Shown piece after piece: positions 12,880 to 58,643 of a stretch of 64,000 nucleotides of DNA; the first letter of the stretch is position 1; each line of letters opens with the position of its first letter. The notes below the pieces were generated by a model. That model worked only from the letters and a program-made list of their open reading frames with translations, did no database searches and was not told the origin of the DNA. The translations under genes and the position numbers were made by a program. Origin of the DNA: Escherichia phage 4MG; the sequence record NC_022968.1, one strand, 5' to 3'.

Positions 12880-12885
12880 TTGAAA

Positions 12886-12920
12886 AGCCCCTTGACTTCA
12901 CGGTTGAGGGGCTTTATTGT
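12886..12920 (+). terminator. rho-independent terminator
   Basis: 11-bp stem (with G-U) and 6-nt loop followed by TTTATTGTT directly after stop at 12879. Confidence 0.6.
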
Positions 12921-12948
12921 TATGGGAGTTAAATACTCCGGAGATGAT

Positions 12949-13143
12949 ATGAAGCTTTCACATTTTATTTATGCAGTGTTAGGCCTTATGGCCCTGACTA
13001 TGCTTACAACATTAGGTCTTGCCTACACAGCAGACTACCAACAACAAACTAACGATATCCTTGGTGGTGGTCTTGGCATGTTCATGCTTGAATTCTTCCT
13101 GCTTATTTTTGGCGGGATGATTGTTGATGCGTCTAACTGGTAA
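12949..13143 (+). CDS. small membrane protein (2 predicted TM helices)
   Basis: ATG at 12949 after GGAG; hydrophobic stretches; upstream part of track ORF lies in terminator hairpin. Confidence 0.4.
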   Translation: MKLSHFIYAVLGLMALTMLTTLGLAYTADYQQQTNDILGGGLGMFMLEFFLLIFGGMIVDASNW

Positions 13144-13153
13144 GGAGAAGAGA

Positions 13154-13360
13154 ATGCGTGGATTTATGCCTTGGATAAAACCTTTGGTGATTGTCGGGAT
13201 AATTGTGGTTGCAGTGTTTATTGTTGTTGACATCACAGATACCGTCACCCATAATTGTAAGCCTAACGGTGAACAACGCCTCGCAAACAGTGCAGACGGT
13301 GTTGTCGTTGAGAACAAACTGATCTGCGACGGTGGTCGCGTGAAGTGGTCTCGCTACTAA
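13154..13360 (+). CDS. small membrane protein
   Basis: ATG at 13154 after AAGGAG; N-terminal hydrophobic helix. Confidence 0.4.
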   Translation: MRGFMPWIKPLVIVGIIVVAVFIVVDITDTVTHNCKPNGEQRLANSADGVVVENKLICDGGRVKWSRY

Positions 13361-13393
13361 ACCTTGATTAAATAATCTCAAGAGGAGATTCAA

Positions 13394-13711
13394 ATGAAAA
13401 AATTAACGATTGCTCTACTGACTATGGCCTTTGTTGCGGGTGCTCATGCAGAAGATGATGATTTCCAAACTGAGCCGATGTGCAAGGTTGAGGTGTGCAA
13501 TAAAATCGAACGCTTCTCCCTCAGCATCTGGTCCCATATGAAGGACAGTATGGGTGAGACCTGCATCGACACAGTGATTCCAAAAAAGGATGCACAGGTG
13601 GGGAATATCCTGAGCGAGGAGTCTCGCTGGTATCAGGGGTCATCTATCAACCCAACCAAAAAGTCGGTGACCCGCGTATCGCAAGTCTACAAATGTCAGA
13701 AGGATCAATAA
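13394..13711 (+). CDS. secreted/periplasmic small protein
   Basis: 105 aa; N-terminal signal-peptide-like MKKLTIALLTMAFVAGAHA; 4 Cys. Confidence 0.5.
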   Translation: MKKLTIALLTMAFVAGAHAEDDDFQTEPMCKVEVCNKIERFSLSIWSHMKDSMGETCIDTVIPKKDAQVGNILSEESRWYQGSSINPTKKSVTRVSQVYKCQKDQ

Positions 13712-13712
13712 C

Positions 13713-14786
13713 ATGACCATTACTCGCGGCCTTATCTTCGGTAAGTTTGCACCACTGACCAACGGGCATATTGCCTTTATTCGTCAGGCAGCACAGCAGG
13801 TTAGTGCTCTGTATCTGTTCCTGTCCTATGACCAGAAATTCGTTGACGCACAACCAGAGTGGATTCGTCCAAAGCTGGGGCTTGCTGACCGTTATCGTGA
13901 CCTGCTGGATGTCATTGCCGATGAGGGACTTGACAACGTGAAGGTAGATTACGTTGATGAGTCGAACATCCCAGGTTATCCGGAAGGTGGCGCTGCCTAT
14001 GCAAAACTGATCCGCGAAAAACAACCGTTCGTCAAATACGACTTTGCTTTCTCTTCAGAGCCGGAGTATGAGTCTTACTTCAACGAGTTCTTCCCTGAAG
14101 CGAAGCACGTTGTGATCGACGCAGAGCGTAAAGAAGTGCCTATCTCTGCCACAATGATCCGTAACGATCCGTACAACAACTTCTACAACCTGGCGTGGCC
14201 TGCACGTAAACGCTTCATGAAAAAGGTTGCCATTGTCGGTGTTGAGAGCACGGGTAAAACCACCCTGACACAGCACTTGGCCCGTACCTTTAATGCTGGC
14301 TGGATTCCGGAGATCGGAAGGCTTATCTGTGAGCGGGAATACCACTCCAGCGAGTTCGCTATGTCTCGTGAAGACTACCTGCGTATCGCTATGGAGCACC
14401 GCCTGAAGGAGATGGAATTGGCTGGCTGGGGTGATCGTGGGGTTATGTTCTCTGACACCACAAACCTGATCACTCATTTCTCTGGTATTTGTGCCGACAA
14501 GATCGACTACTCAGATCTGTTGTTCCGTACACTGAGTCGTGAAGAGAGCTACAACTTCTATGACCTGTTCCTGTTCCTCACACCAGAGGTTCCGTGGGTT
14601 GCTGATCCTCTTCGCTTGCAGGATACACCAGAAAAGCGTAAAGAAACACATTCTTTGCTTGACACAATGATCAGGGCATCTTACGATACAAGCAGGGTGG
14701 TGGTTATCTCCGGCAGTGATTACAAAGAACGTACTCAGAAAGCCGAAGAATCTGTCCGTAAATTGCTGAATATCAATGGGGAATAA
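13713..14786 (+). CDS. nadR: NadR-like bifunctional NMN adenylyltransferase / ribosylnicotinamide kinase
   Basis: 357 aa; N-terminal nucleotidyltransferase motif GKFAPLTNGH (HxGH class); central P-loop GVESTGKTT; no HTH domain. Confidence 0.7.
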   Translation: MTITRGLIFGKFAPLTNGHIAFIRQAAQQVSALYLFLSYDQKFVDAQPEWIRPKLGLADRYRDLLDVIADEGLDNVKVDYVDESNIPGYPEGGAAYAKLIREKQPFVKYDFAFSSEPEYESYFNEFFPEAKHVVIDAERKEVPISATMIRNDPYNNFYNLAWPARKRFMKKVAIVGVESTGKTTLTQHLARTFNAGWIPEIGRLICEREYHSSEFAMSREDYLRIAMEHRLKEMELAGWGDRGVMFSDTTNLITHFSGICADKIDYSDLLFRTLSREESYNFYDLFLFLTPEVPWVADPLRLQDTPEKRKETHSLLDTMIRASYDTSRVVVISGSDYKERTQKAEESVRKLLNINGE

Positions 14787-14787
14787 G

Positions 14788-15153
14788 ATGAACGTGACAA
14801 ACTCAAGCATGAAGCAGGCTTTTGGTGTCTTGAAGGTCGTCCTGGAAAAAGCTCCAGATTTAGGCCAAGGTCTCCAGGCCTATGCGAACTGCCGTGAGCA
14901 GGGCTTCTCTATCATGAAGTTGGACTACTCAGGTGGACAAGATAATTGTCGCCAAGTGTCATTTTCGGAATGCCGTAACAGTGACCAGATCACCGTGTAC
15001 TATGGGTCAACACGCGACTTCAATTTCCAAACCAACATCCCCACGGATGATACCTATTTCAATCGTCGTAAATTCTTCGGCTATGAGAAGTACGAAGAGG
15101 CGGCTGACTGGATTGTGGCGTACCTGAAAGGTGATAAAGATGGAACAAACTAA
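14788..15153 (+). CDS. hypothetical protein
   Basis: Track ORF 14776..15153; ATG 14788 after upstream stop. Confidence 0.5.
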   Translation: MNVTNSSMKQAFGVLKVVLEKAPDLGQGLQAYANCREQGFSIMKLDYSGGQDNCRQVSFSECRNSDQITVYYGSTRDFNFQTNIPTDDTYFNRRKFFGYEKYEEAADWIVAYLKGDKDGTN

Positions 15154-15472
15154 GCCGACTCTGGTCTGGAAAACCCAGGAGGGTTTTGATATGCGAATTA
15201 GCCACATGTCTGATGAGCATATTGTTAACGCTATAAACTGGTTGCTGGTAGAACCTGGGACAGATGACCCCTCTGACCTGCTGGATACTTATCTGCAAGT
15301 CCCTATTGTTATCTGGATTCGCGAGTTGACTCAGGAGTTGTATCGTCGGCTACACCCCACAGGGATAAATCCGGTGCATATTGACCCTGAACTACCGCCA
15401 GGATTATACACGGTGGAGATAAAGACAAAGGGTGGTGCTGCGATTATTAATGGGGTGCAGAACAGTGGCTAA
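15140..15472 (+). CDS. hypothetical protein
   Basis: Track ORF 15131..15472; start uncertain. Confidence 0.45.
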   Translation: MEQTKPTLVWKTQEGFDMRISHMSDEHIVNAINWLLVEPGTDDPSDLLDTYLQVPIVIWIRELTQELYRRLHPTGINPVHIDPELPPGLYTVEIKTKGGAAIINGVQNSG

Positions 15473-15473
15473 G

Positions 15474-15794
15474 GTGCTCAACTTTTACCACATTGGTAAA
15501 GTGATCCCTGAAGGTGCGGTCTATGTGGGCCGTACCATGAAGAAGTACGGATTGGTGGGTCACAAGCTTGCTAATCCTTTCCCGTTGAACAAAGACGGGT
15601 CCAACCGTGATGAAGTGATCGAACAGTATCGCCAGTGGTTGTGGAAAAAACTTCATGAGAAGGGTGGTCACTTTAAAGAATTGATTGACCTGGACGGAAA
15701 AGATCTGGTATGCTTCTGTTCACCAAAGAGGTGTCACTGTGATGTGATACTTGCGGCAATCGAATGGGCTAAACAAAGGAGTCAAAATGTCTAA
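15474..15794 (+). CDS. hypothetical protein (Cys/His-containing C-terminus CFCSPKRCHCD)
   Basis: Track ORF 15432..15794; start uncertain (GTG 15474 or later ATG). Confidence 0.4.
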   Translation: MLNFYHIGKVIPEGAVYVGRTMKKYGLVGHKLANPFPLNKDGSNRDEVIEQYRQWLWKKLHEKGGHFKELIDLDGKDLVCFCSPKRCHCDVILAAIEWAKQRSQNV

Positions 15795-16047
15795 ACACAC
15801 ACCGGGTCCCTGGTCAAATGATGGAACAGAGGTCGGCACTGGTATCCTGCACGAAATAAAGATCGCAAAGTGTTGTCTTGTCGGGTACGAGGAGACTCGT
15901 GCCAACGCGAGGCTTATTGCAGCATCGCCGGAAATGTTGGAGCTTCTAGAGCTTTCTCTTCCGTACCTTAACGATGCAGCAAAAACAGATGGTCATGCAT
16001 TTGCAATCTATAATAAGGTTGCAAGAACTATCAAACGTTTCCAGTAG
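15787..16047 (+). CDS. hypothetical protein
   Basis: ATG 15787 after AAGGAG; within track ORF 15751..16047. Confidence 0.5.
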   Translation: MSKHTPGPWSNDGTEVGTGILHEIKIAKCCLVGYEETRANARLIAASPEMLELLELSLPYLNDAAKTDGHAFAIYNKVARTIKRFQ

Positions 16048-16055
16048 GGGATGAC

Positions 16056-16283
16056 ATGCATAAATACTACTTCACCTTCGGAATGAATCAGCAGACGAAG
16101 GATGGTATGTCCCTCGGCAACTTCTACGTCTGCATCGAAGCACCGGACATGAACACTGCACGGTTCGATATGTTCGATGCCCGCGGTAGTTCTTGGTCTT
16201 TTTCTTACACAGAAGAAGAATTTTCTGGACAACCAGAAAAATATGGGTTAACCTCTTTAACGTTAGAGCAAGTAACCTTATAA
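16056..16283 (+). CDS. hypothetical protein
   Basis: 75 aa ORF. Confidence 0.5.
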   Translation: MHKYYFTFGMNQQTKDGMSLGNFYVCIEAPDMNTARFDMFDARGSSWSFSYTEEEFSGQPEKYGLTSLTLEQVTL

Positions 16284-16302
16284 CTTAGGCACAGGAGACA
16301 TC

Positions 16303-16494
16303 ATGAGTCTTAAAAAAGATCACACCTACATCGAGGTGTATAAGAATATTGCTGGCGGCAATTCTCTTGTAATTGCTGATGATAATGGCGGTTATCGCTT
16401 AGTAGGCACAAAGATAACTGGTCAACCAATAGCGCGATTTGAAGTTTCTGTTGAAGAACTCATGGTCGCGGTAAACAATCACCAGGGAGAATAA
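16303..16494 (+). CDS. hypothetical protein
   Basis: 63 aa ORF, AGGAGA SD. Confidence 0.5.
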   Translation: MSLKKDHTYIEVYKNIAGGNSLVIADDNGGYRLVGTKITGQPIARFEVSVEELMVAVNNHQGE

Positions 16495-16495
16495 A

Positions 16496-17218
16496 ATGAA
16501 TACAAATCTGTACATTAAGACAGCGTGGACCGACTTCTATGGTTGGACAAATCTCGAATACCTCTGGCTTCTGATCTGTTCTGCATCTATTGCAACGGTC
16601 TCTATCGTCACAGGGGGTACGATGGTAGAGTTTATCTCCTCCGTCACAGGTATCGTCGGTGCGATTCTGGTTGCGAAAGGTAAACTTTCCAGCTACTATT
16701 GGGGCTTCATTGCCACAGTGCTGTATGCTTATGTGTCGTTCACGTACAAACTCTACGGTGAAACGATCATGTACACCGTCTTGTTTACCCCGATGCAGGT
16801 CATTGGTGGTATTATCTGGGCGCGTAAGCTGAATGTTTCTGCTGATGGTGAACGTGCAGACGTTATCAAGCGCTATCTGACGACGAAACAACGTTGGTTG
16901 GTGGGTCTTGCCACAGCAGCAGCCATTGTGTGTTACGCCCTGTTCATCAAAGAGCTTAAAGGTTCCTTACCTGGTCCTGATGCAGCAACGGCTATCCTGT
17001 CGGTTCTTGCAACGTGGATGATGGTTGTTCGATTGTCTGAACAGTGGTACGTGTGGATCATCGTGAACATCGTGGCTGTAGGTATGTGGGTTAACCTGAC
17101 ACTGCATCACCAGGGTGCTGGAGCAGCAAACCTTGCAATGTGGGTAACATTCCTGTTAAACTCTGTGTATGGCGCTTACAAATGGCGTAAAACAGAAAAG
17201 GAAACAGCATATGCGTGA
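16496..17218 (+). CDS. pnuC: PnuC-like nicotinamide riboside transporter
   Basis: 240 aa polytopic membrane protein; size and multi-TM layout of PnuC; WYVWIIVNIV and GGIIWARK segments resemble PnuC signature regions as recalled from memory; 1.7 kb downstream of the nadR-like gene. Confidence 0.6.
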   Translation: MNTNLYIKTAWTDFYGWTNLEYLWLLICSASIATVSIVTGGTMVEFISSVTGIVGAILVAKGKLSSYYWGFIATVLYAYVSFTYKLYGETIMYTVLFTPMQVIGGIIWARKLNVSADGERADVIKRYLTTKQRWLVGLATAAAIVCYALFIKELKGSLPGPDAATAILSVLATWMMVVRLSEQWYVWIIVNIVAVGMWVNLTLHHQGAGAANLAMWVTFLLNSVYGAYKWRKTEKETAYA

Positions 17219-17429
17219 CTTGATCGTCCCAGCAGCAATCAGTGCCTCGGTGTTCTTTATTGTTCTTGCAATATCCGTCGCACTTGGCTACTATGTTGGC
17301 ATCAGCGCGGGGGAAGTATTCGGAACACCCGGCTTTGGTGAGTACACACAGACATCCGTCGTAGTTGGTTGTACTCTGGGATTACCTCTTGGCATGGCCG
17401 CTTTTGGCATAAGTTCGGGTGTTGCATGA
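17211..17429 (+). CDS. small membrane protein
   Basis: ATG 17211 within track ORF; hydrophobic; overlaps pnuC-like stop. Confidence 0.4.
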   Translation: MRDLIVPAAISASVFFIVLAISVALGYYVGISAGEVFGTPGFGEYTQTSVVVGCTLGLPLGMAAFGISSGVA

Positions 17430-17608
17430 AAATTCGAATCATGATGTTTTTGGCAGTATTCTTTGGTTTGGTGATGTGCTCGGTAGCGGTGGCATTCTGC
17501 GGTGGGGCTAAGTTTGGAACCGACGCGTTTGGGTGGATACTGGCTACAGGGATGATGGTTGGTGTGGTTGGTGGGCTACTGGCAGCAGCGCTGCCTGACT
17601 ACAGATAG
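17426..17608 (+). CDS. small membrane protein
   Basis: ATG 17426 (ATGA overlap); hydrophobic. Confidence 0.4.
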   Translation: MKIRIMMFLAVFFGLVMCSVAVAFCGGAKFGTDAFGWILATGMMVGVVGGLLAAALPDYR

Positions 17609-17616
17609 GGTGAAAA

Positions 17617-18186
17617 GTGAAAAGAACAAAGCATATCAATAAAAATGCTTTCCGGAAGGTAGGGCGCTATGCCCTGCCATTCGCGGTGGCAATCACAGTT
17701 GCAGGTTGTGAGCAAGCAGACATTGACATGAAGATGTATAAGAATGTTGATGAGTGTATTGCGGATACGCACAAACCGGATCAGTGCCGTGCAGCAAGAC
17801 AAGAAGCAGAAAAGGTTGCAAATGAAACTGCGCCACGCTATGCTACTTACTCTGACTGCTACGCTGAGTTCGGTGACCAGTGCCGACACAACCCAAGCAG
17901 TTCAGATGGTGGTTCTTCGTGGATGCCGTTGATGATGGGATACATGATGGGTAACAGCATGAATTCCGGTTATCATTCAGCACCACTGTATCAGGATCGT
18001 TCGGGTCAGTATATGGATAATAAGTTCCGTAGCTACAATGCACGTCCTGGTCAAACGTTTAAGGTGACAAGCTCTGCGGCTAAACCGTCGATCCAGTCTC
18101 CTCGTACAACAGTTTCTCGTAGCACCACATCTTCTCGTGGTGGTTTTGGTAGCTCTGTGAGCAGCCGCTCATCTTTTGGAGGATAA
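17617..18186 (+). CDS. lipoprotein with Ser/Gly-rich C-terminus
   Basis: 189 aa; lipobox-like AITVAGC after hydrophobic N-terminus. Confidence 0.5.
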   Translation: MKRTKHINKNAFRKVGRYALPFAVAITVAGCEQADIDMKMYKNVDECIADTHKPDQCRAARQEAEKVANETAPRYATYSDCYAEFGDQCRHNPSSSDGGSSWMPLMMGYMMGNSMNSGYHSAPLYQDRSGQYMDNKFRSYNARPGQTFKVTSSAAKPSIQSPRTTVSRSTTSSRGGFGSSVSSRSSFGG

Positions 18187-18189
18187 GGA

Positions 18190-18561
18190 ATGATTGGATT
18201 TTGGGAATGGTACACAATGCACAATAACTGGGTGTCTAGTGTTATTCTGCTTGTTATCTTCGGCTTCTGGGGATGGTCATTAGGATCTGGATTCTCCACC
18301 TGGAAACACAAGACAGTTTCCTATCTGTTTGTGGGGGCTGTTGGGTTCCTTATGTTTTATCTGGGGACATATCAGGGTGGATACGGGATGTACAAACGTC
18401 ACTGGACAACTTGTTCTAAACCTGCTGCGGTAGAGGCGTTCTATGTGTTCGATGCACAGAAAGAGCGTTGCTTCAAGCCTGTGGTCGGCTTTGCCCCTGT
18501 TGATGACAATCAGGTTAAAACGCTGACTCCAAAACAAATGGAGACTGGCGAATGGTTATGA
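18190..18561 (+). CDS. membrane protein
   Basis: 123 aa; GGAGGA SD; two hydrophobic helices. Confidence 0.5.
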   Translation: MIGFWEWYTMHNNWVSSVILLVIFGFWGWSLGSGFSTWKHKTVSYLFVGAVGFLMFYLGTYQGGYGMYKRHWTTCSKPAAVEAFYVFDAQKERCFKPVVGFAPVDDNQVKTLTPKQMETGEWL

Positions 18562-18839
18562 AATCAGAACGGACTGGTGAGAACTTTGTACGAATGTACG
18601 AAAAAAGCCTAGAGTTGGGTGTGGAACTCCCCAACCTTGAGGAGAAACTGGTTCTGCAATACTTCCAGGACAATGTTGACAACTTACCAGTTGAATACGA
18701 TAGTCCTGCTGAGTTTCATCGGGCTTTCCGTCAGATAGATGTTTGTCGTAAGGGTTATCAGGACATGGTGATCTGGAGTTTGATGTCTGGCGGGGAATTG
18801 AATACAATCTGGAAAGTTCTGGAGGAATTTTATGCGTAG
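18552..18839 (+). CDS. hypothetical protein
   Basis: 95 aa ORF overlapping neighbours by a few nt. Confidence 0.45.
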   Translation: MVMKSERTGENFVRMYEKSLELGVELPNLEEKLVLQYFQDNVDNLPVEYDSPAEFHRAFRQIDVCRKGYQDMVIWSLMSGGELNTIWKVLEEFYA

Positions 18840-19131
18840 CAGTCATATCTTAGAAGCATGGACGAGAGCCTATGGAAGACCGCAGGAAGATCCGCACGGT
18901 GTCTTTGCAGATCTCCTTGGCGTTGATCGCAATGAGGCGAAGCGTGTTTGCTATGAGTTTATGTGGTCCGATGAAGGCAAGAAAATCTTTGCCGTTGACC
19001 AGTGGCATCACACAAGTCAAGAAGGGCTTTTTATCTATAAATTCTTTAAAGACTTACTGGCACAGGTAAATGTCCATGCAGTGCCTTCGATCACAGAAAT
19101 TCTTCAAATGAGGGAGCAGAATAATGCGTAA
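18832..19131 (+). CDS. hypothetical protein
   Basis: 99 aa ORF. Confidence 0.45.
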   Translation: MRSSHILEAWTRAYGRPQEDPHGVFADLLGVDRNEAKRVCYEFMWSDEGKKIFAVDQWHHTSQEGLFIYKFFKDLLAQVNVHAVPSITEILQMREQNNA

Positions 19132-19627
19132 GTTCTTCAAGTGGTTAGCCGGGTTGTTCTCGTCAAACACGGTGGTTACTGTCGGTAACGGCAACACAAC
19201 GTTTGTTTCACAAACAACCACAACGGTAACAAAGATCCCTCCCCTGACACAGGAAGAGATCTCTCAGATTGCGACAAAAGCTGTGGAAAATGTAGCAGCA
19301 CAGAAGATCGTTACCAATGCTATCGCTGCGGAACGAAAACCTGTGAAGACAGCGCCCAGTCCGAGCGCTAAACCATTAAAGGCTGAAGAGTTGAAAAGGG
19401 CGGTCACTGCATCACGAAACAGGGCGTCTGTTCGCCCAGAACCAGCACGAAGCCGTGCAGTGTCTGATGATGATAGTTATCGTCGCCGTAACGACGACAT
19501 TGCATTCATCAACACAACGACGATCAGCGACACGTATACTCATCATACGTCAAGCCACTCCTCAAGCAGCCATGACTCGTATTCTTCCTGCGATTCTAGC
19601 TCTTCTTTTAGCGGGAGTTGCGATTGA
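19124..19627 (+). CDS. hypothetical protein, Ser-rich C-terminus
   Basis: 167 aa ORF. Confidence 0.45.
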   Translation: MRKFFKWLAGLFSSNTVVTVGNGNTTFVSQTTTTVTKIPPLTQEEISQIATKAVENVAAQKIVTNAIAAERKPVKTAPSPSAKPLKAEELKRAVTASRNRASVRPEPARSRAVSDDDSYRRRNDDIAFINTTTISDTYTHHTSSHSSSSHDSYSSCDSSSSFSGSCD

Positions 19628-19695
19628 AAGTAGAGAAGGCTTTTGTCTGCGCATACTCACATGTGACCAGGGCCATTGTAGAAAAGGAGATTTCA

Positions 19696-19851
19696 ATGAT
19701 TACCTGTGATATGTGTGGGTTGTGTGCATATACGGAAGAGCGTTTGCCGGAGCCGTCCATTGGGGGAGTTGTCAACACTTCCAGTGCGAACACTTCTTGG
19801 ATTGGTCTTCCACCACTTGAACCATTAAATTTGAAAAAGGACAGATTATGA
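19696..19851 (+). CDS. small Cys-rich protein (51 aa)
   Basis: ATG 19696 after AAGGAG; CDMCGLC motif. Confidence 0.35.
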   Translation: MITCDMCGLCAYTEERLPEPSIGGVVNTSSANTSWIGLPPLEPLNLKKDRL

Positions 19852-20057
19852 AAATAGGTTTTATGGCGTTATTGGCGTTAGTATTTATCACACTAAAACT
19901 GTGCGGTGTGATCGCATGGTCATGGTGGTTAGTTCTGCTGCCACTTTACTTCGGTCTGGCGCTTGTCGTTGGTGTGATCGTACTCTTTATCCTTGGTGTG
20001 TTCGGGGTGGCTGGCGTTTCAAGCCTCCTTGAAAAGCTGAAGAAAAAGGGTAAATAA
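19848..20057 (+). CDS. small membrane protein
   Basis: 69 aa; almost entirely hydrophobic; ATGA overlap. Confidence 0.45.
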   Translation: MKIGFMALLALVFITLKLCGVIAWSWWLVLLPLYFGLALVVGVIVLFILGVFGVAGVSSLLEKLKKKGK

Positions 20058-20478: not shown

Positions 20479-21618
20479 ATGAGCGTAATTACTGAAGTAG
20501 TGAACCCGGCTGATGATTCTGTTGCACTGAAAGCTAAAGGTGTGATCAAACGTATCTTTATCAAGCGTATCAACGCCGATGGTTCACCTAAGGTAACCAA
20601 CATCACCAAGGGTCCAAACAAAGGGAAATCTATTTCCGCGACCCACCGTTATTCCATTCTGCTGACAGCGGGGGGTGTTGATGAATTCGTATCTTTCGGT
20701 GAGGGTGAAGTTAAAAACCTGAAGTACGAAAACCAGTTCCAAGTTAAAACCGACGATGGCTATAAAGATTTGCTGCCCGGTGCAGAGATCTCCATCTACC
20801 CGGTTGAGAAACAGGAATATCAGAAAGATGGTGAAACCAAAGTTTCTTACCAAGGCAAGCGTAAGAACATCAAGATTCTGGTAGATGCACCTGCTGATGC
20901 GGCTCCACAGCAATCAAGTGCTCCGGCACAAACTGGCGGTGCAAAGGGTGCTAAGATCTACGGTGAGATCCTGTCTATCGACGGCAACGTTGCGGTTGTT
21001 AACGATGAGAAGCAGGGTGAGGGGCGTGTGGTTCTGACTGCCGATCAACTAGCAGAGGTTTCTGTGGGTGGTCGTCTGGCTGCTTTCGTAGATCTTTCTA
21101 CAGGCAACATCATCAACAGCTTCAAGGCCTATGGCCCTGTTGGTCAAGGTGGTGGTTCTGGTGGGAAAGGTAAGCGTACCCCTTACGATCCTGTGGGTGT
21201 ATCTGCTGGTCATGCCATGAACGCACTGGTCAACCTGAAGCTGTCAGGCTTTAAGGGTGACGTAGAGGCGGCAGGCAAGGTTGTTCATGATGTGACAACC
21301 AAGCTGATCAAGGAACTTTCCGAAACTGAAGGAAAAGATGTTGGTCAGACTGTAGGTAACGCTGTTAAGTTTGCTGTGACAAACATTGCTGTTAAAGGCA
21401 AGGTTATCGACGCAGATGAACTGGAGAAGGCAACACGCGAAGCGTATGCCCTTGCAGCGACGTTCTATGCATACGCCAGTGCAACTGCACAGGAAGAGGC
21501 TCAGAAGCCAGCACAGAGCGCCCCAGAGCCGCAGGTAGGCAATGGTACAGTATCTGCACCGCCTGTTGATTTCGATGACACCCCTCCTCTGGACTTCGAC
21601 GACGATATTCCGTTCTAA
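20479..21618 (+). CDS. single-stranded DNA-binding protein-like, with bacterial-SSB-type acidic tail
   Basis: ATG 20479 after AAGGAGAGAGA; C-terminus ...VDFDDTPPLDFDDDIPF, identical in its last 8 residues to the canonical E. coli SSB tip. Confidence 0.6.
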   Translation: MSVITEVVNPADDSVALKAKGVIKRIFIKRINADGSPKVTNITKGPNKGKSISATHRYSILLTAGGVDEFVSFGEGEVKNLKYENQFQVKTDDGYKDLLPGAEISIYPVEKQEYQKDGETKVSYQGKRKNIKILVDAPADAAPQQSSAPAQTGGAKGAKIYGEILSIDGNVAVVNDEKQGEGRVVLTADQLAEVSVGGRLAAFVDLSTGNIINSFKAYGPVGQGGGSGGKGKRTPYDPVGVSAGHAMNALVNLKLSGFKGDVEAAGKVVHDVTTKLIKELSETEGKDVGQTVGNAVKFAVTNIAVKGKVIDADELEKATREAYALAATFYAYASATAQEEAQKPAQSAPEPQVGNGTVSAPPVDFDDTPPLDFDDDIPF

Positions 21619-21626
21619 ATAAGAAA

Positions 21627-21649
21627 GGCTCCCGATTGGGAGCCTTTTT
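21627..21649. terminator. bidirectional rho-independent terminator between convergent genes
   Basis: GGCTCCC-GATT-GGGAGCC hairpin with T-runs on both strands. Confidence 0.65.
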
Positions 21650-25217: not shown

Positions 25218-25487
25218 TTATTGGTCTGACTTTTGCTCTTCACGTTGGGCTTCTGTTACGCCCCAACGAAGAGAGATGAGTTTACTGATAAGTTGCGGTG
25301 CAGCAACAGTGGGTGCATATACCCACATATACCACTCTGTCAACGTGCCTTTGAATCCCCAATAGAGGAATACTGCGGTCATAGATGCCAGGCCGATATT
25401 GCTCCAGAACTTTGTGTGTGAAGCCTTCTCAGGATCAACTGGTGATCTAACGAGGTCCTTCAAAAATTTCATTATTGATTTTAACAT
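25218..25487 (-). CDS. small membrane protein
   Basis: 89 aa, one hydrophobic helix; GAGG SD. Confidence 0.4.
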   Translation of the reverse strand: MLKSIMKFLKDLVRSPVDPEKASHTKFWSNIGLASMTAVFLYWGFKGTLTEWYMWVYAPTVAAPQLISKLISLRWGVTEAQREEQKSDQ

Positions 25488-25502
25488 ATTTCCTCAAGAT
25501 TC

Positions 25503-25976
25503 TCAATGAACTAACATGGGGAGGAACCTTGCAAGAACCACGAGGCTTACCACGGTTGCAGTCTTAATCCACTCTTTGACTGTGTTATCCTTGAAGGATG
25601 CACAAAGGATCAGAACCTCCATAAAGGTCTGGTATGACGAGTTGATGACAAAGTTCAATGCAAATGGTAAGAGGAATGGAAATTGCATGACTATTATCTG
25701 GCAGAAGAGTATTGGAACCGACACGGCAAGTGTCAACTTCTTCTTCCATCCCGACAATACACACGCTGTACAAAATAAAAGGGCGATGTCGAGTAACCAA
25801 CAGAACGTCATATACAACGACAGATCAAAATAAACACTGTGTGCAGAGAACCACCAGTACATAAAGTTCTCTAGAAGAATATGGATCATACCAAAGATAG
25901 ACATGATCCGTATTCCCTTGTCAGTATTAAGCAGCAGCACTGCAAAGCAAATGAAATACAGTGCTGAACTTATCAT
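25503..25976 (-). CDS. polytopic membrane protein
   Basis: 157 aa, about 4 hydrophobic helices. Confidence 0.4.
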   Translation of the reverse strand: MISSALYFICFAVLLLNTDKGIRIMSIFGMIHILLENFMYWWFSAHSVYFDLSLYMTFCWLLDIALLFCTACVLSGWKKKLTLAVSVPILFCQIIVMQFPFLLPFALNFVINSSYQTFMEVLILCASFKDNTVKEWIKTATVVSLVVLARFLPMLVH

Positions 25977-26287
25977 TTGAATTGACGCTCCATTAGCATT
26001 TGAAACTGCTTGCTAAGGTCGCTACGTAAGTCACCAACGTCATCCTTGATGTCTTTACGCAATTCTGAAACGTCATCACGAACCGTCTTGAGTTTCTTAT
26101 CGAGAATCTCATCCAGTTTTTCTTTTGTGACCATCTCTGCCTTAATCCTTATGATATCTTTATCAAGTTCATCAAGGCGTTCTTGCGTTTTTTTGTAGTC
26201 AGAGTATGTGATTCTCAGGACACCAATCAGCACAAACGTGATAACGCCCCATACGGCTTTAAGGATAGCAAATAGATCAATGGACAT
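25973..26287 (-). CDS. membrane-anchored coiled-coil protein
   Basis: 104 aa; N-terminal TM then charged heptad-like region. Confidence 0.4.
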   Translation of the reverse strand: MSIDLFAILKAVWGVITFVLIGVLRITYSDYKKTQERLDELDKDIIRIKAEMVTKEKLDEILDKKLKTVRDDVSELRKDIKDDVGDLRSDLSKQFQMLMERQFK

Positions 26288-57951: not shown

Positions 57952-58242
57952 TCACTTTTTAGGATCAAATATGTTGCGAATATACTGCTGAAGGATGCGA
58001 AGTTTGCTACGATCATTTGCTCCGTCGAGGTTGTTCTTCTTCATGATCGCACTGTTAACCGAGTTGTCAGCACCATAAGGAAGAGGTGTAGGCTCAACAG
58101 GGTCAACCATAGCCGCAGCAGGAGGCTTTGCAAGGACTTCTGCTGGGTCAAACTTCTGCACCACTGGAACAACCTCAGGTGCATTTCTGCACCCGCTTAT
58201 AAGCGCTGTAGCAACCAGCACTGCGATTATCGTCTTTCTCAT
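57952..58242 (-). CDS. o-spanin (outer-membrane lipoprotein component)
   Basis: 96 aa; signal + lipobox LISGC; Pro-rich mature part; 4-nt overlap with i-spanin. Confidence 0.6.
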   Translation of the reverse strand: MRKTIIAVLVATALISGCRNAPEVVPVVQKFDPAEVLAKPPAAAMVDPVEPTPLPYGADNSVNSAIMKKNNLDGANDRSKLRILQQYIRNIFDPKK

Positions 58243-58643
58243 TTCAACCCCAGGCTCTCGTTATAAATATCCACAAAGTCATTATCCAGACCCTTCTTCT
58301 TTCCGTTATCAGAGTTTCGATAAGCGTCTTGCTTCTTGTCAAGCTCTGATTGCAGTTTTGCATTCTTTGCTTTCTCTTCCTCAAGTTGCTTACTTAACTC
58401 ATCAGAAGACTTCTGCTGGTTGTCTTTGTAGTCATGATTGGCATTCTTGTTTTCCTGTTGTTTGGCAGTCCACTTATCATCAGTATCTTTCACACCACGA
58501 TTGTAAGAAGCTGTGATTTGGTCATTGTACCAGTGCTTAGTATAAACCGCCCCGGAGAACAGGGCGATTGCTAAGATTGCTGCGATGACTAATTTAGTGT
58601 TGTTCCTGATAAAGGCAACCACCATTCTAACTACATCTATCAT
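58239..58643 (-). CDS. i-spanin (inner-membrane component)
   Basis: 134 aa; N-terminal TM; charged coiled-coil periplasmic domain; ATGA overlap with upstream gene. Confidence 0.6.
   Translation of the reverse strand: MIDVVRMVVAFIRNNTKLVIAAILAIALFSGAVYTKHWYNDQITASYNRGVKDTDDKWTAKQQENKNANHDYKDNQQKSSDELSKQLEEEKAKNAKLQSELDKKQDAYRNSDNGKKKGLDNDFVDIYNESLGLK

Follow-up and report, generated by a model that had tools for sequence, protein, structure and literature searches.

In Escherichia phage 4MG, eight small envelope-protein genes among genes for replication and NAD salvage are a heterogeneous set

We analyzed a 64,000-nucleotide (nt) stretch of the genome of Escherichia phage 4MG (sequence record NC_022968.1; Seunavirus, Vequintavirinae), called here the window, and in it eight small open reading frames (ORFs; termed o1 to o8 in order of position, all on the + strand, Table 1) that code for predicted membrane or secreted proteins and are interleaved with NAD-salvage genes. 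The eight ORFs are a heterogeneous set and not one system, because o2 and o7 are found in ∼67 Vequintavirinae-type records each, o6 in several phage genera and in bacteria, and o3 and o8 in 262 and 332 phage records, respectively. Nor are they the lysis cassette. Three layers would make up the set: (i) the lineage-specific inner-membrane proteins o1, o2, the o4/o5 paralogues and o7; (ii) o6, a host-derived outer-membrane lipoprotein of the DUF1190 family; and (iii) two proteins shared by many unrelated phages, the putatively periplasmic o3 and the membrane protein o8, which belongs to replication modules in the phages checked. We consider it fairly likely that these proteins are exported in early or middle infection, with the infected cell's envelope as their site of action. 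The genes are an ordinary and already annotated feature of a known phage, namely accessory envelope proteins beside replication and NAD-salvage genes. Large virulent phages routinely encode groups of small membrane proteins in their early regions, and the eight ORFs are already annotated in 4MG and in dozens of relatives; the cluster as first reported therefore matters little. The most interesting member of the set, and the one that deserves an experiment, is o3.

All eight ORFs proposed in the initial annotation were recovered at their positions in the ORF listing. Seven of them start with ATG and o6 with GTG, and a Shine-Dalgarno-like purine run precedes seven; the exception is o5, whose start overlaps the o4 stop (ATGA). 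Exact end-to-end matches to the deposited 4MG proteins were obtained for o1, o2 and o3 (X824_gp016, gp017 and gp018), o4 and o5 (gp027 and gp028), o7 (gp030) and o8 (gp035), and o6 is the deposited AGZ17503.1/YP_008857245.1 (gp029 by position). The depositors' annotation already holds all eight ORFs with the same boundaries. Database labels are 'putative membrane protein' for three of the ORFs (UniProt) and 'DUF1190 domain-containing protein' for one (NCBI). In a PHROG search each ORF had a full-length match to one family (E 1e-23 to 1e-67), and these families all carry the label 'unknown function'.

The nearest other genome in the phage collection was Enterobacter phage FENT2 (Seunavirus), with ∼85% nt identity over 81% of the query. 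The ratio of nonsynonymous to synonymous substitution rates (dN/dS) was computed pairwise by the Nei-Gojobori method against FENT2, Klebsiella phage DP, Enterobacter phage EC152 and Cronobacter phage GAP31. Values were 0.01–0.21 for seven ORFs and 0.33–0.40 for o5, and the neighboring NadR and PnuC genes fell in the same range. Purifying selection acts on all eight ORFs. Lack of conservation, which the initial annotation had named as grounds for dismissing them, was looked for and not found, as shown by the full-length PHROG matches and by dN/dS values well below 1. The view of the ORFs as fortuitous open frames or as remnants in decay, without a product, draws on their short length (60–189 amino acids [aa]), on the want of an assigned function and on the weakest constraint, that of o5. 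Frame, length and key residues are kept, however, across genomes with dS from 0.2 to >2; every ORF has a full-length PHROG match; o3, o6 and o8 have hundreds of homologues; and ribosome-binding sites or translational coupling are in place. We give this view a negligible chance, and from the sequence comparisons it is effectively refuted.

Table 1. Features of the window discussed in the text (TM, transmembrane segment)
Feature	Position	Strand	Length (aa)	Characteristics
Terminator-like hairpin	12884..12923	+		Pattern scan: 14-bp stem, then T-rich run
o1 (gp016)	12949..13143	+	64	Two predicted TM, very short acidic C-terminus; phrog_18454
o2 (gp017)	13154..13360	+	68	One predicted N-terminal TM anchor, positively charged N-terminus
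o3 (gp018)	13394..13711	+	105	Predicted Sec signal peptide (...AGAHA, followed by EDDD); phrog_6894
NadR-like enzyme	13713..14786	+	357	Pfam CTP_transf_like at residues 8-151, AAA_28 at 171-340
PnuC-type nicotinamide riboside transporter	16496..17218	+	240	phrog_1880, 1.6e-75; 37% identity to T5-like PnuC
o4 (gp027)	17211..17429	+	72	Two predicted glycine-rich TM helices; dN/dS 0.16-0.19
o5 (gp028)	17426..17608	+	60	Two predicted glycine-rich TM helices; dN/dS 0.33-0.40
o6 (gp029 by position; AGZ17503.1)	17617..18186	+	189	GTG start; predicted DUF1190 (YgiB/YjfM-type) lipoprotein
o7 (gp030)	18190..18561	+	123	Variable hairpin of two predicted TM, nearly invariant 60-aa C-terminal domain
o8 (gp035)	19848..20057	+	69	Two to three predicted TM, basic tail KLKKKGK; phrog_1374
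SSB-like gene	20479..21618	+	379	Last gene of the + block; only match phrog_4477 (unknown function)
Two-way terminator hairpin	21624..21647	both		Pattern scan and folding
Three membrane proteins	25218..26287	-		Late tail-fibre operon; further lysis-control candidates
o-spanin	57952..58242	-	96	Lipobox ISGC
i-spanin	58239..58643	-	134	N-terminal TM; stop/start overlap with o-spanin gene; the pair adjoins the large terminase gene

Topology was predicted with our own Kyte-Doolittle hydropathy scan and a lipobox pattern search, rather than with TMHMM or SignalP. Five ORFs were predicted to have at least two TM helices, one an N-terminal anchor, one a Sec-type export signal, and one, the DUF1190 protein, a lipoprotein signal. 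The claim that the cluster consists of membrane or secreted proteins and one lipoprotein thus held in the hydropathy scan and the lipobox search. For o3 the earlier reading of signal and lipobox sequences was borne out in part: a Sec-type signal peptide is predicted, and a lipobox is absent.

Homologues of o1 (dN/dS 0.03–0.15) are so far confined to Vequintavirinae relatives, the 67 phage records with o2 are nearly all Vequintavirinae-type, and the ∼67 records with o7 are exclusively so. In o2 (dN/dS 0.06–0.21) the C-terminal part, a domain of ∼40 aa with a predicted periplasmic location, has two conserved Cys. The C-terminal domain of o7 contains two invariant Cys, and by the positive-inside rule an N-out/C-out topology is predicted. 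The AlphaFold model of o7 shows a confident helical hairpin (residues 13–33 and 38–76) and a C-terminal domain with a predicted local distance difference test score (pLDDT) of 50–76. The two proteins are alike in that the TM part is variable, and the extracytoplasmic domain with its two Cys is nearly invariant.

In o4 the two TM helices are linked by the invariant loop GEVFGTPGFGEY. The o4 and o5 products are 37% identical over 46 aa (E = 6e-5) and have a common FGT-x-x-FG loop; by sequence they are distant paralogues. The gene o4 is translationally coupled to PnuC through an 8-nt overlap. After PnuC, FENT2 and DP have the o4 type only, EC152 and GAP31 have the o5 type only, and 4MG has both in tandem. 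This pattern points to a hot spot of recombination or duplication just 3′ of PnuC.

The second layer would be o6, which matched Pfam PF06693 with 134.9 bits (cutoff 22; E 4e-39) over profile positions 3–159 of 159. Its signal consists of a basic n-region, an h-region and the lipobox VAGC (Cys31), with Glu at +2, and this Cys is invariant in a 15-sequence alignment with bacterial members. The protein also has the Met-rich motif WMPLMMGYMMG, the motif RGGFG and four conserved Cys; residues C47, C57, C81, C89, M103, P104, M106, G108, M110, R174, G176, F177 and G178 are invariant in the DUF1190 alignment. The score against the NCBIfam model PRK11653 was 143.9 bits, below its cutoff of 223, so that o6 is a member of the family and not a YgiB equivalog. 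Its product is 95–99% identical across the four relatives, in which other genes diverge far more (dN/dS 0.01–0.06).

Homologues of o6 are also present in Vequintavirinae, in the T4-like Moonvirus, in Agricanvirus and Mimasvirus jumbo phages and in Certrevirus. The most distant DUF1190 matches, partly bacterial, are ∼30–36% identical to it, and its non-phage relatives are exclusively bacterial YgiB/YjfM-type proteins. Phage PVP-SE1 has no o6 gene, and there o7 directly follows PnuC. From this distribution o6 looks like a repeatedly captured host-type gene, and it probably retains the envelope-related activity of bacterial DUF1190 proteins, because every residue that is invariant in these is kept. 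DUF1190 proteins have been described as predicted outer-membrane lipoproteins (PMC11762307) and as a 'metal-chelating lipoprotein' in PspA-linked operons (PMC11237479). Like E. coli YgiB and YjfM, encoded in the tolC-ygiBC and yjfIJKLMC operons, o6 has the lipobox Cys, the four Cys and the WMPLMMGYMMG and RGGFG motifs; unlike them, it falls below the equivalog cutoff and has no ATP-grasp partner in the phage contexts examined. A YgiC/YjfC-type partner gene was found near o6 neither in the window nor in the Merlin, Special G, GAP32, CR3 and SSBI34 contexts. Candidate DUF350/YjfL-like partners of DUF1190, in the style of the bacterial yjf operon, were sought in o4, o5 and o7 and rejected, as none of them gave a Pfam or NCBIfam match. 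A functional link between DUF1190 and PnuC was likewise rejected, because the o6 gene lies away from PnuC and NadR in those same five phages and because PVP-SE1 has no DUF1190 gene between PnuC and o7. An association of YgiBC/YjfMC loss with NAD+ depletion in tolC mutants, reportedly described by Dhamdhere and Zgurskaya (2010), was set aside as evidence, and a TolC review makes no mention of NAD. Because several unrelated phage lineages carry a DUF1190 lipoprotein, these phages could serve as an entry point to what YgiB/YjfM do in E. coli.

The third layer would comprise o8 and o3. Among phage records, 332 share the N-terminal 34-aa motif of o8 (dN/dS 0.07–0.16), and some of these phages infect Gram-positive hosts. 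In Drulisvirus phiKpS2 the o8 homologue (gp20) lies between phosphoesterase and exonuclease genes, and the annotated spanin, holin and endolysin (gp50–52) form a separate cassette; in Acinetobacter phage Phab24 the homologue also adjoins an exonuclease gene. Residues 7–51 of o8 aligned to one repeat of Pfam Tmemb_185A (PF10269; E 8e-5), a family whose name, 'transmembrane Fragile-X-F protein', is used in some phage records for o8 homologues. The score (22.9 bits) is just below the gathering cutoff (23.1), and the label is uninformative, because the eukaryotic family is many-spanning and without known function.

The initial annotation had suggested holin or antiholin functions for these ORFs, and had recognised no holin or endolysin in the lysis cassette. 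The second point is correct for the window: beside the terminase gene there is an i-spanin/o-spanin pair and no holin or endolysin. The first finds no support, as the eight ORFs have no lysis-family match, lie among replication and NAD genes and have neither an endolysin nor a spanin gene as neighbor. Searches against lysis-category PHROGs and against the holin families of Pfam and NCBIfam gave no match for any of the eight. By size and by their one to three predicted transmembrane domains (TMDs), o1, o2, o4, o5, o7 and o8 would qualify as holins, and o3 and o6 would not. The net charge of the last 15 residues is −1 in o1, 0 in o4, o5 and o7, +3 in o2, where the tail is predicted to be periplasmic, and +4 in o8, the only one with a basic cytoplasmic tail of the holin type.

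Such features leave room for the proposal that one or more of these small membrane proteins, either o8 alone or o1 and o2 as a holin/antiholin pair, is the missing Vequintavirinae holin, which would accumulate in the inner membrane and, when infection ends, let out the cytoplasmic glycoside hydrolase family 19 (GH19)-type endolysin. No holin has been identified for rV5-like phages (LL12 announcement, PMC6658697), and in these phages the spanin genes lie beside the terminase gene, away from any lysis cassette (CB7 paper, PMC7344957). The GH19-type endolysin of FENT2, whose gene is ∼75 kb away from the block, lacks both an N-terminal signal and a signal-anchor-release (SAR) sequence, so that it needs a holin; lysis genes are dispersed in this phage group, and o8 combines 69 aa, two to three TMDs and a +4 C-terminal tail. 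Scattered lysis genes have a precedent in T4. The proposal is nevertheless improbable. In addition to the missing family matches and to a location apart from endolysin and spanins, o1, o4, o5 and o7 have no charged cytoplasmic tail, and o8 was rejected as a holin on the replication-module contexts of its family in Drulisvirus and Phab24 and on the separate holin of phiKpS2. Like the CB7_82-type holin candidate and the lambda S and phage 21 S21 holins, o1, o4, o5 and o8 are small and have at least two TMDs, with a basic tail in o8 as well; unlike these, they are not beside a gene for a muralytic enzyme and match no holin family.

A better candidate was found elsewhere. In CB7 a 65-aa protein with two TMDs (CB7_82), whose gene overlaps that of a SleB-like hydrolase (CB7_83), has been proposed to be a class II holin (PMC7344957). 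A corresponding pair is present in FENT2 directly upstream of rIIA (locus L056, 1313..2063), where the gene of a SleB-type hydrolase (PF07486, E 8e-21) with an N-terminal hydrophobic segment is followed after 4 nt by that of a 57-aa protein that has two TMDs and the basic tail RKARKRNPINNCK. This 57-aa protein is by sequence and context the best holin candidate for the phage group, and its position corresponds to a site a little beyond the left edge of the window. For the GH19 endolysin gene of FENT2, a neighboring TM gene was also sought, and none was found. Further alternatives are the three membrane proteins of the late tail-fibre operon of 4MG, of 89 aa (phrog_1322, 'membrane protein'), 157 aa (phrog_7451; four to five TMDs) and 104 aa (phrog_5345; N-terminal TMD and a charged, likely coiled-coil tail). 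In T4 the holin gene t adjoins the tail-fibre genes. For the Vequintavirinae, which are used in biocontrol and phage therapy, the holin should be sought beside the SleB-type hydrolase or in the tail-fibre operon, and not in the block studied here.

The other widely shared protein, o3, has a variable signal peptide and a highly conserved mature domain of ∼86 aa, with four invariant or nearly invariant Cys, many invariant polar residues and the motif ESRWYQGSSINPTKKSVTRV. The AlphaFold model had an overall pLDDT of 81, with values mostly of at least 90 in the mature domain, and no fold match was found among PDB structures. Constraint is strong (dN/dS 0.015–0.05). In a large protein collection 147 homologues with 46–98% identity were detected, from Erwinia/Serratia/Yersinia-type jumbo phages, Xanthomonas phage XbC2, Aeromonas T4-like phages, Pseudomonas phage OBP and others. 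In a tblastn search o3 was found in 262 records of myo-, sipho- and podophages, among which T5-like phages of Salmonella and Escherichia are the majority. The family is almost confined to virulent phages; apparent bacterial members, the 'Salmonella enterica' entries, were rejected as such, since they are ∼350-kb contigs that resemble jumbo-phage genomes. Identity within the family is 50–70% across rV5-like, T5-like, T4-like and jumbo phages, an unusual conservation for a small phage protein, and o3 keeps company with the recently described NARP3.

NARP3 is a counter-defence pathway made up of the NadR-like Bas30_86 and the PnuC-like Bas30_87 of the T5-like phage TrudiRoth (Sci Adv 2026, PMC13464706). 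Both parts are also present in the window, where they are 36–37% identical to the T5-like versions. The NadR-like enzyme of 4MG has an NMN adenylyltransferase and a ribosylnicotinamide-kinase (AAA_28) domain, is 35.6% identical to T5-like phage NadR and, from its length and domain positions, would be without the bacterial N-terminal helix-turn-helix domain. Unlike the contiguous two-gene cassette of NARP3, which is also the arrangement in T5-like and jumbo phages, the 4MG pair is split: NadR and PnuC are 1.7 kb apart, with six small ORFs between them. The published system mentions no periplasmic neighbor.

In 4MG a gap of 1 nt separates the o3 stop codon from the start of NadR. FENT2, DP, EC152, GAP31 and PVP-SE1 have an extra ∼90-aa ORF between o3 and NadR (phrog_16511 in FENT2; locus L001, 3283..3573), and o3 adjoins NadR directly in 4MG (13711/13713) because this ORF is absent there. 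The order of the genes varies among lineages. In 4MG and PVP-SE1 o3 is upstream of NadR; in Erwinia phage pEa_SNUABM_47 and four related jumbo contigs (Eneladusvirus-type) the order is o3-NadR-PnuC; and in Salmonella phage Stitch and the BASEL phage Bas26 (Epseptimavirus) it is NadR-PnuC-(terminator)-o3 (bas26_0086 to 0088, with o3 = bas26_0088). Proximity of o3, NadR and PnuC is therefore seen in three lineages: Seunavirus, Epseptimavirus and Eneladusvirus-type jumbo phages. Among 26 o3 loci, NadR was near nine and PnuC near eight, and these were the sole neighbor families that recurred across lineages. About 180 T5-like records have o3, NadR and PnuC together, as estimated from an evenly spaced listing of a combined query, and in Salmonella and Escherichia phage records o3 was counted 201 times vs. 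212 for NadR.

These associations raise the possibility that o3, and perhaps the PnuC-coupled o4, o5 and o7, are accessories of NARP3. The o3 protein would then capture nicotinamide riboside (NR) or other precursors or modulate PnuC, so that salvage would work at low natural precursor levels. The 1-nt gap to NadR in 4MG, the adjacency in Eneladusvirus-type jumbo phages and in Epseptimavirus including Bas26, the near coincidence of record counts, and the consistent translational coupling of o4 or o5 to PnuC in the relatives compared all speak for it. The proximity has also persisted although gene order has changed and NadR has diverged to 35–44% identity, which argues mildly for selection. On the other side, E. 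coli supplied with NR regains NAD+ with no more than the two NARP3 genes (PMC13464706), and the cassettes of the Vibrio phage ICP1 and Aeromonas phage Akh-2 have no adjacent o3, nor do Henunavirus-type phages or phages of Gram-positive hosts as covered by the combined search; o3 is thus not required for NARP3. At 17 of the 26 o3 loci, and in five further lineages, that is in most o3 lineages, neither NadR nor PnuC lies within 5–6 kb. The o3 sequences from NARP3-linked loci are closest to one another in a neighbor-joining tree, so that the linkage may be a single event that has spread as a block; it probably arose once. Neither the sequence nor the predicted fold of o3 suggests ligand binding. 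We regard the accessory role as a tentative possibility on the unlikely side, and a functional tie of o3 to NARP3 as such is doubtful on the sequence evidence. Bolder still, and slightly less likely, is the idea that o3 founds a family of periplasmic phage effectors and is, in its NARP3-linked branch, an overlooked third, periplasmic component of NAD+ reconstitution. If it were true, two-gene NARP3 would become a three-part, envelope-spanning pathway, for example with o3 capturing NR or other precursors for PnuC.

In the Eneladusvirus-type jumbo phages (locus L017, 603..1532, and the related L020-L023) an ADP-ribosylglycohydrolase gene was seen 3–4.5 kb 5′ of o3-NadR-PnuC. This arrangement hints at a larger NAD/ADP-ribose counter-defence neighborhood at the jumbo-phage o3 locus.

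The initial annotation had also named superinfection exclusion and host takeover as candidate functions; these are plausible as analogies to T4 Imm and Sp and to T5 Llp. T4 Imm has 83 aa and two TM, T4 Sp is a secreted protein of 97 aa, and T5 Llp is a small lipoprotein. Were the ORFs exclusion or immunity factors, the inner-membrane proteins would block DNA entry as Imm does, o3 would inhibit the incoming tail lysozyme in the manner of Spackle, and o6 would mask an outer-membrane receptor like T5 Llp or Cor proteins. The resemblance lies in size, in predicted topology and in an early or middle block position in a large virulent phage, and o3 is found almost solely in virulent phages. In one case an o3 homologue lies between gp25/gp6-like baseplate genes and gp5-like/lysozyme genes. 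This is the metagenomic contig ERR1078384_25620 (locus L053, 5001..5312), in which the o3 homologue and an upstream 63-aa ORF form an opposite-strand island flanked by gp25/gp6-like baseplate genes and by gp5-like spike and lysozyme genes. In T4, Spackle inhibits the gp5 lysozyme, and the o3 context in this contig recalls it.

Pfam and PHROG searches, however, revealed no sequence similarity to Imm, Sp, Llp or Cor, the o3 structure comparison detected no similarity in fold to Imm, Sp or Llp, and no PADLOC defence model was matched. The retention of all invariant DUF1190 residues in o6 favors a host-type activity over a specialised receptor mask, and recognition of a specific rival phage is unlikely, because o3 is 50–70% identical across phages with very different hosts and tails. 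We therefore hold exclusion or immunity as the common function of the ORFs to be unlikely, only slightly more so than the accessory role in NARP3.

The eight ORFs are placed between the DNA polymerase gene and an SSB-like gene, on the strand of rIIA and the replication genes. From the FENT2 annotation, this + strand block starts with rIIA and rIIB, followed by genes for a helicase, a methyltransferase, a primase/helicase and DNA polymerase. The block then continues with o1–o3, NadR, six small ORFs, PnuC, o4–o7, four ORFs, o8 and the SSB-like gene, and ends at a terminator. The description of the ORFs as interleaved with NAD-salvage genes is accurate, with the NadR-like gene and PnuC among them, and their assignment to the early genes is upheld, in the sense of an early/middle rIIA-replication block, by the same-strand gene order. 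Junctions are tight: PnuC and o4 overlap by 8 nt, and both o4/o5 and o7/next gene are joined as ATGA. Genes for envelope-targeted proteins, with PnuC counted, make up 9 of the 24 genes in the block from 12.3 to 21.6 kb. Elsewhere in the window there are 6 such genes among 57, and the replication block upstream has none among 12 (Fisher p = 0.007–0.014). The enrichment is real and more than chance, if modest.

A terminator-like hairpin precedes o1, the first membrane ORF, by 26 nt. Its folding energy at 12884–12915 is −20.9 kcal/mol (z = −4.15), and sigma-70-like hexamers (TTGACT-17 nt-TATTGT) lie in the stem and 3′ flank. The element is nearly invariant in five relatives, in which the flanking DNA is ∼85% identical, and it occurs once in the window. 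It has the look of a terminator/promoter junction, because it is near-invariant despite differing flanks and unique in the window, and it probably opens a separately regulated transcription unit that starts with o1. A repeated phage promoter was considered for this element and ruled out by its single copy in the window and by the want of informative direct repeats; a generic sigma-70 promoter scan of the region gave no more sites than shuffled sequence. At 21.6 kb a hairpin with −21.2 kcal/mol on the + strand and −17.8 kcal/mol on the − strand (z about −5) separates the + block from the convergent tail-gene operon on the other strand. We infer that the eight ORFs are very likely co-made with rIIA/rIIB and with the replication and NAD-salvage genes, because they share one strand and one block, from the conserved hairpin at 12.9 kb to the two-way terminator at 21.6 kb.

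Taken with the predicted topologies, this arrangement is consistent with the reading that we prefer, of proteins exported early or in the middle of infection. Their export would proceed through Sec, YidC or Lol. Because o2, o3, o6 and o7 each have an even number of conserved Cys, their periplasmic domains probably contain disulfide bonds, and these domains would then have envelope components of the infected cell as their targets. Envelope conditioning or protection, such as superinfection exclusion or control of envelope stress, would be the likely roles, and o3 possibly aids the NR-uptake arm of NARP3. Several points tell against this reading: the topology predictor is a simple one, the time of expression is taken from gene order alone, no transcriptome was found for this phage group, and a lysis role for one of the small TM proteins keeps a small probability. 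For o3 the points to be added are the o3 loci away from NadR and PnuC, the clustering of the linked sequences in the tree, the ICP1 and Akh-2 cassettes without o3 and the sufficiency of two genes in E. coli.

Two further observations concern neighboring genes. Beyond the equivalent of the right end of the window, FENT2 has genes for a nicotinamide phosphoribosyltransferase and a ribose-phosphate pyrophosphokinase (locus L012, 3172..5739). The phage group may thus combine the NR route (NadR/PnuC) with a nicotinamide route to nicotinamide mononucleotide (NMN), as seen in FENT2. The 379-aa SSB-like protein ends in ...PPVDFDDTPPLDFDDDIPF, and its last eight residues are those which we take to be the C-terminal tip of E. 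coli SSB. In E. coli this tip recruits host replication and repair proteins, and the phage product may be an SSB-like protein that mimics the host SSB tail.

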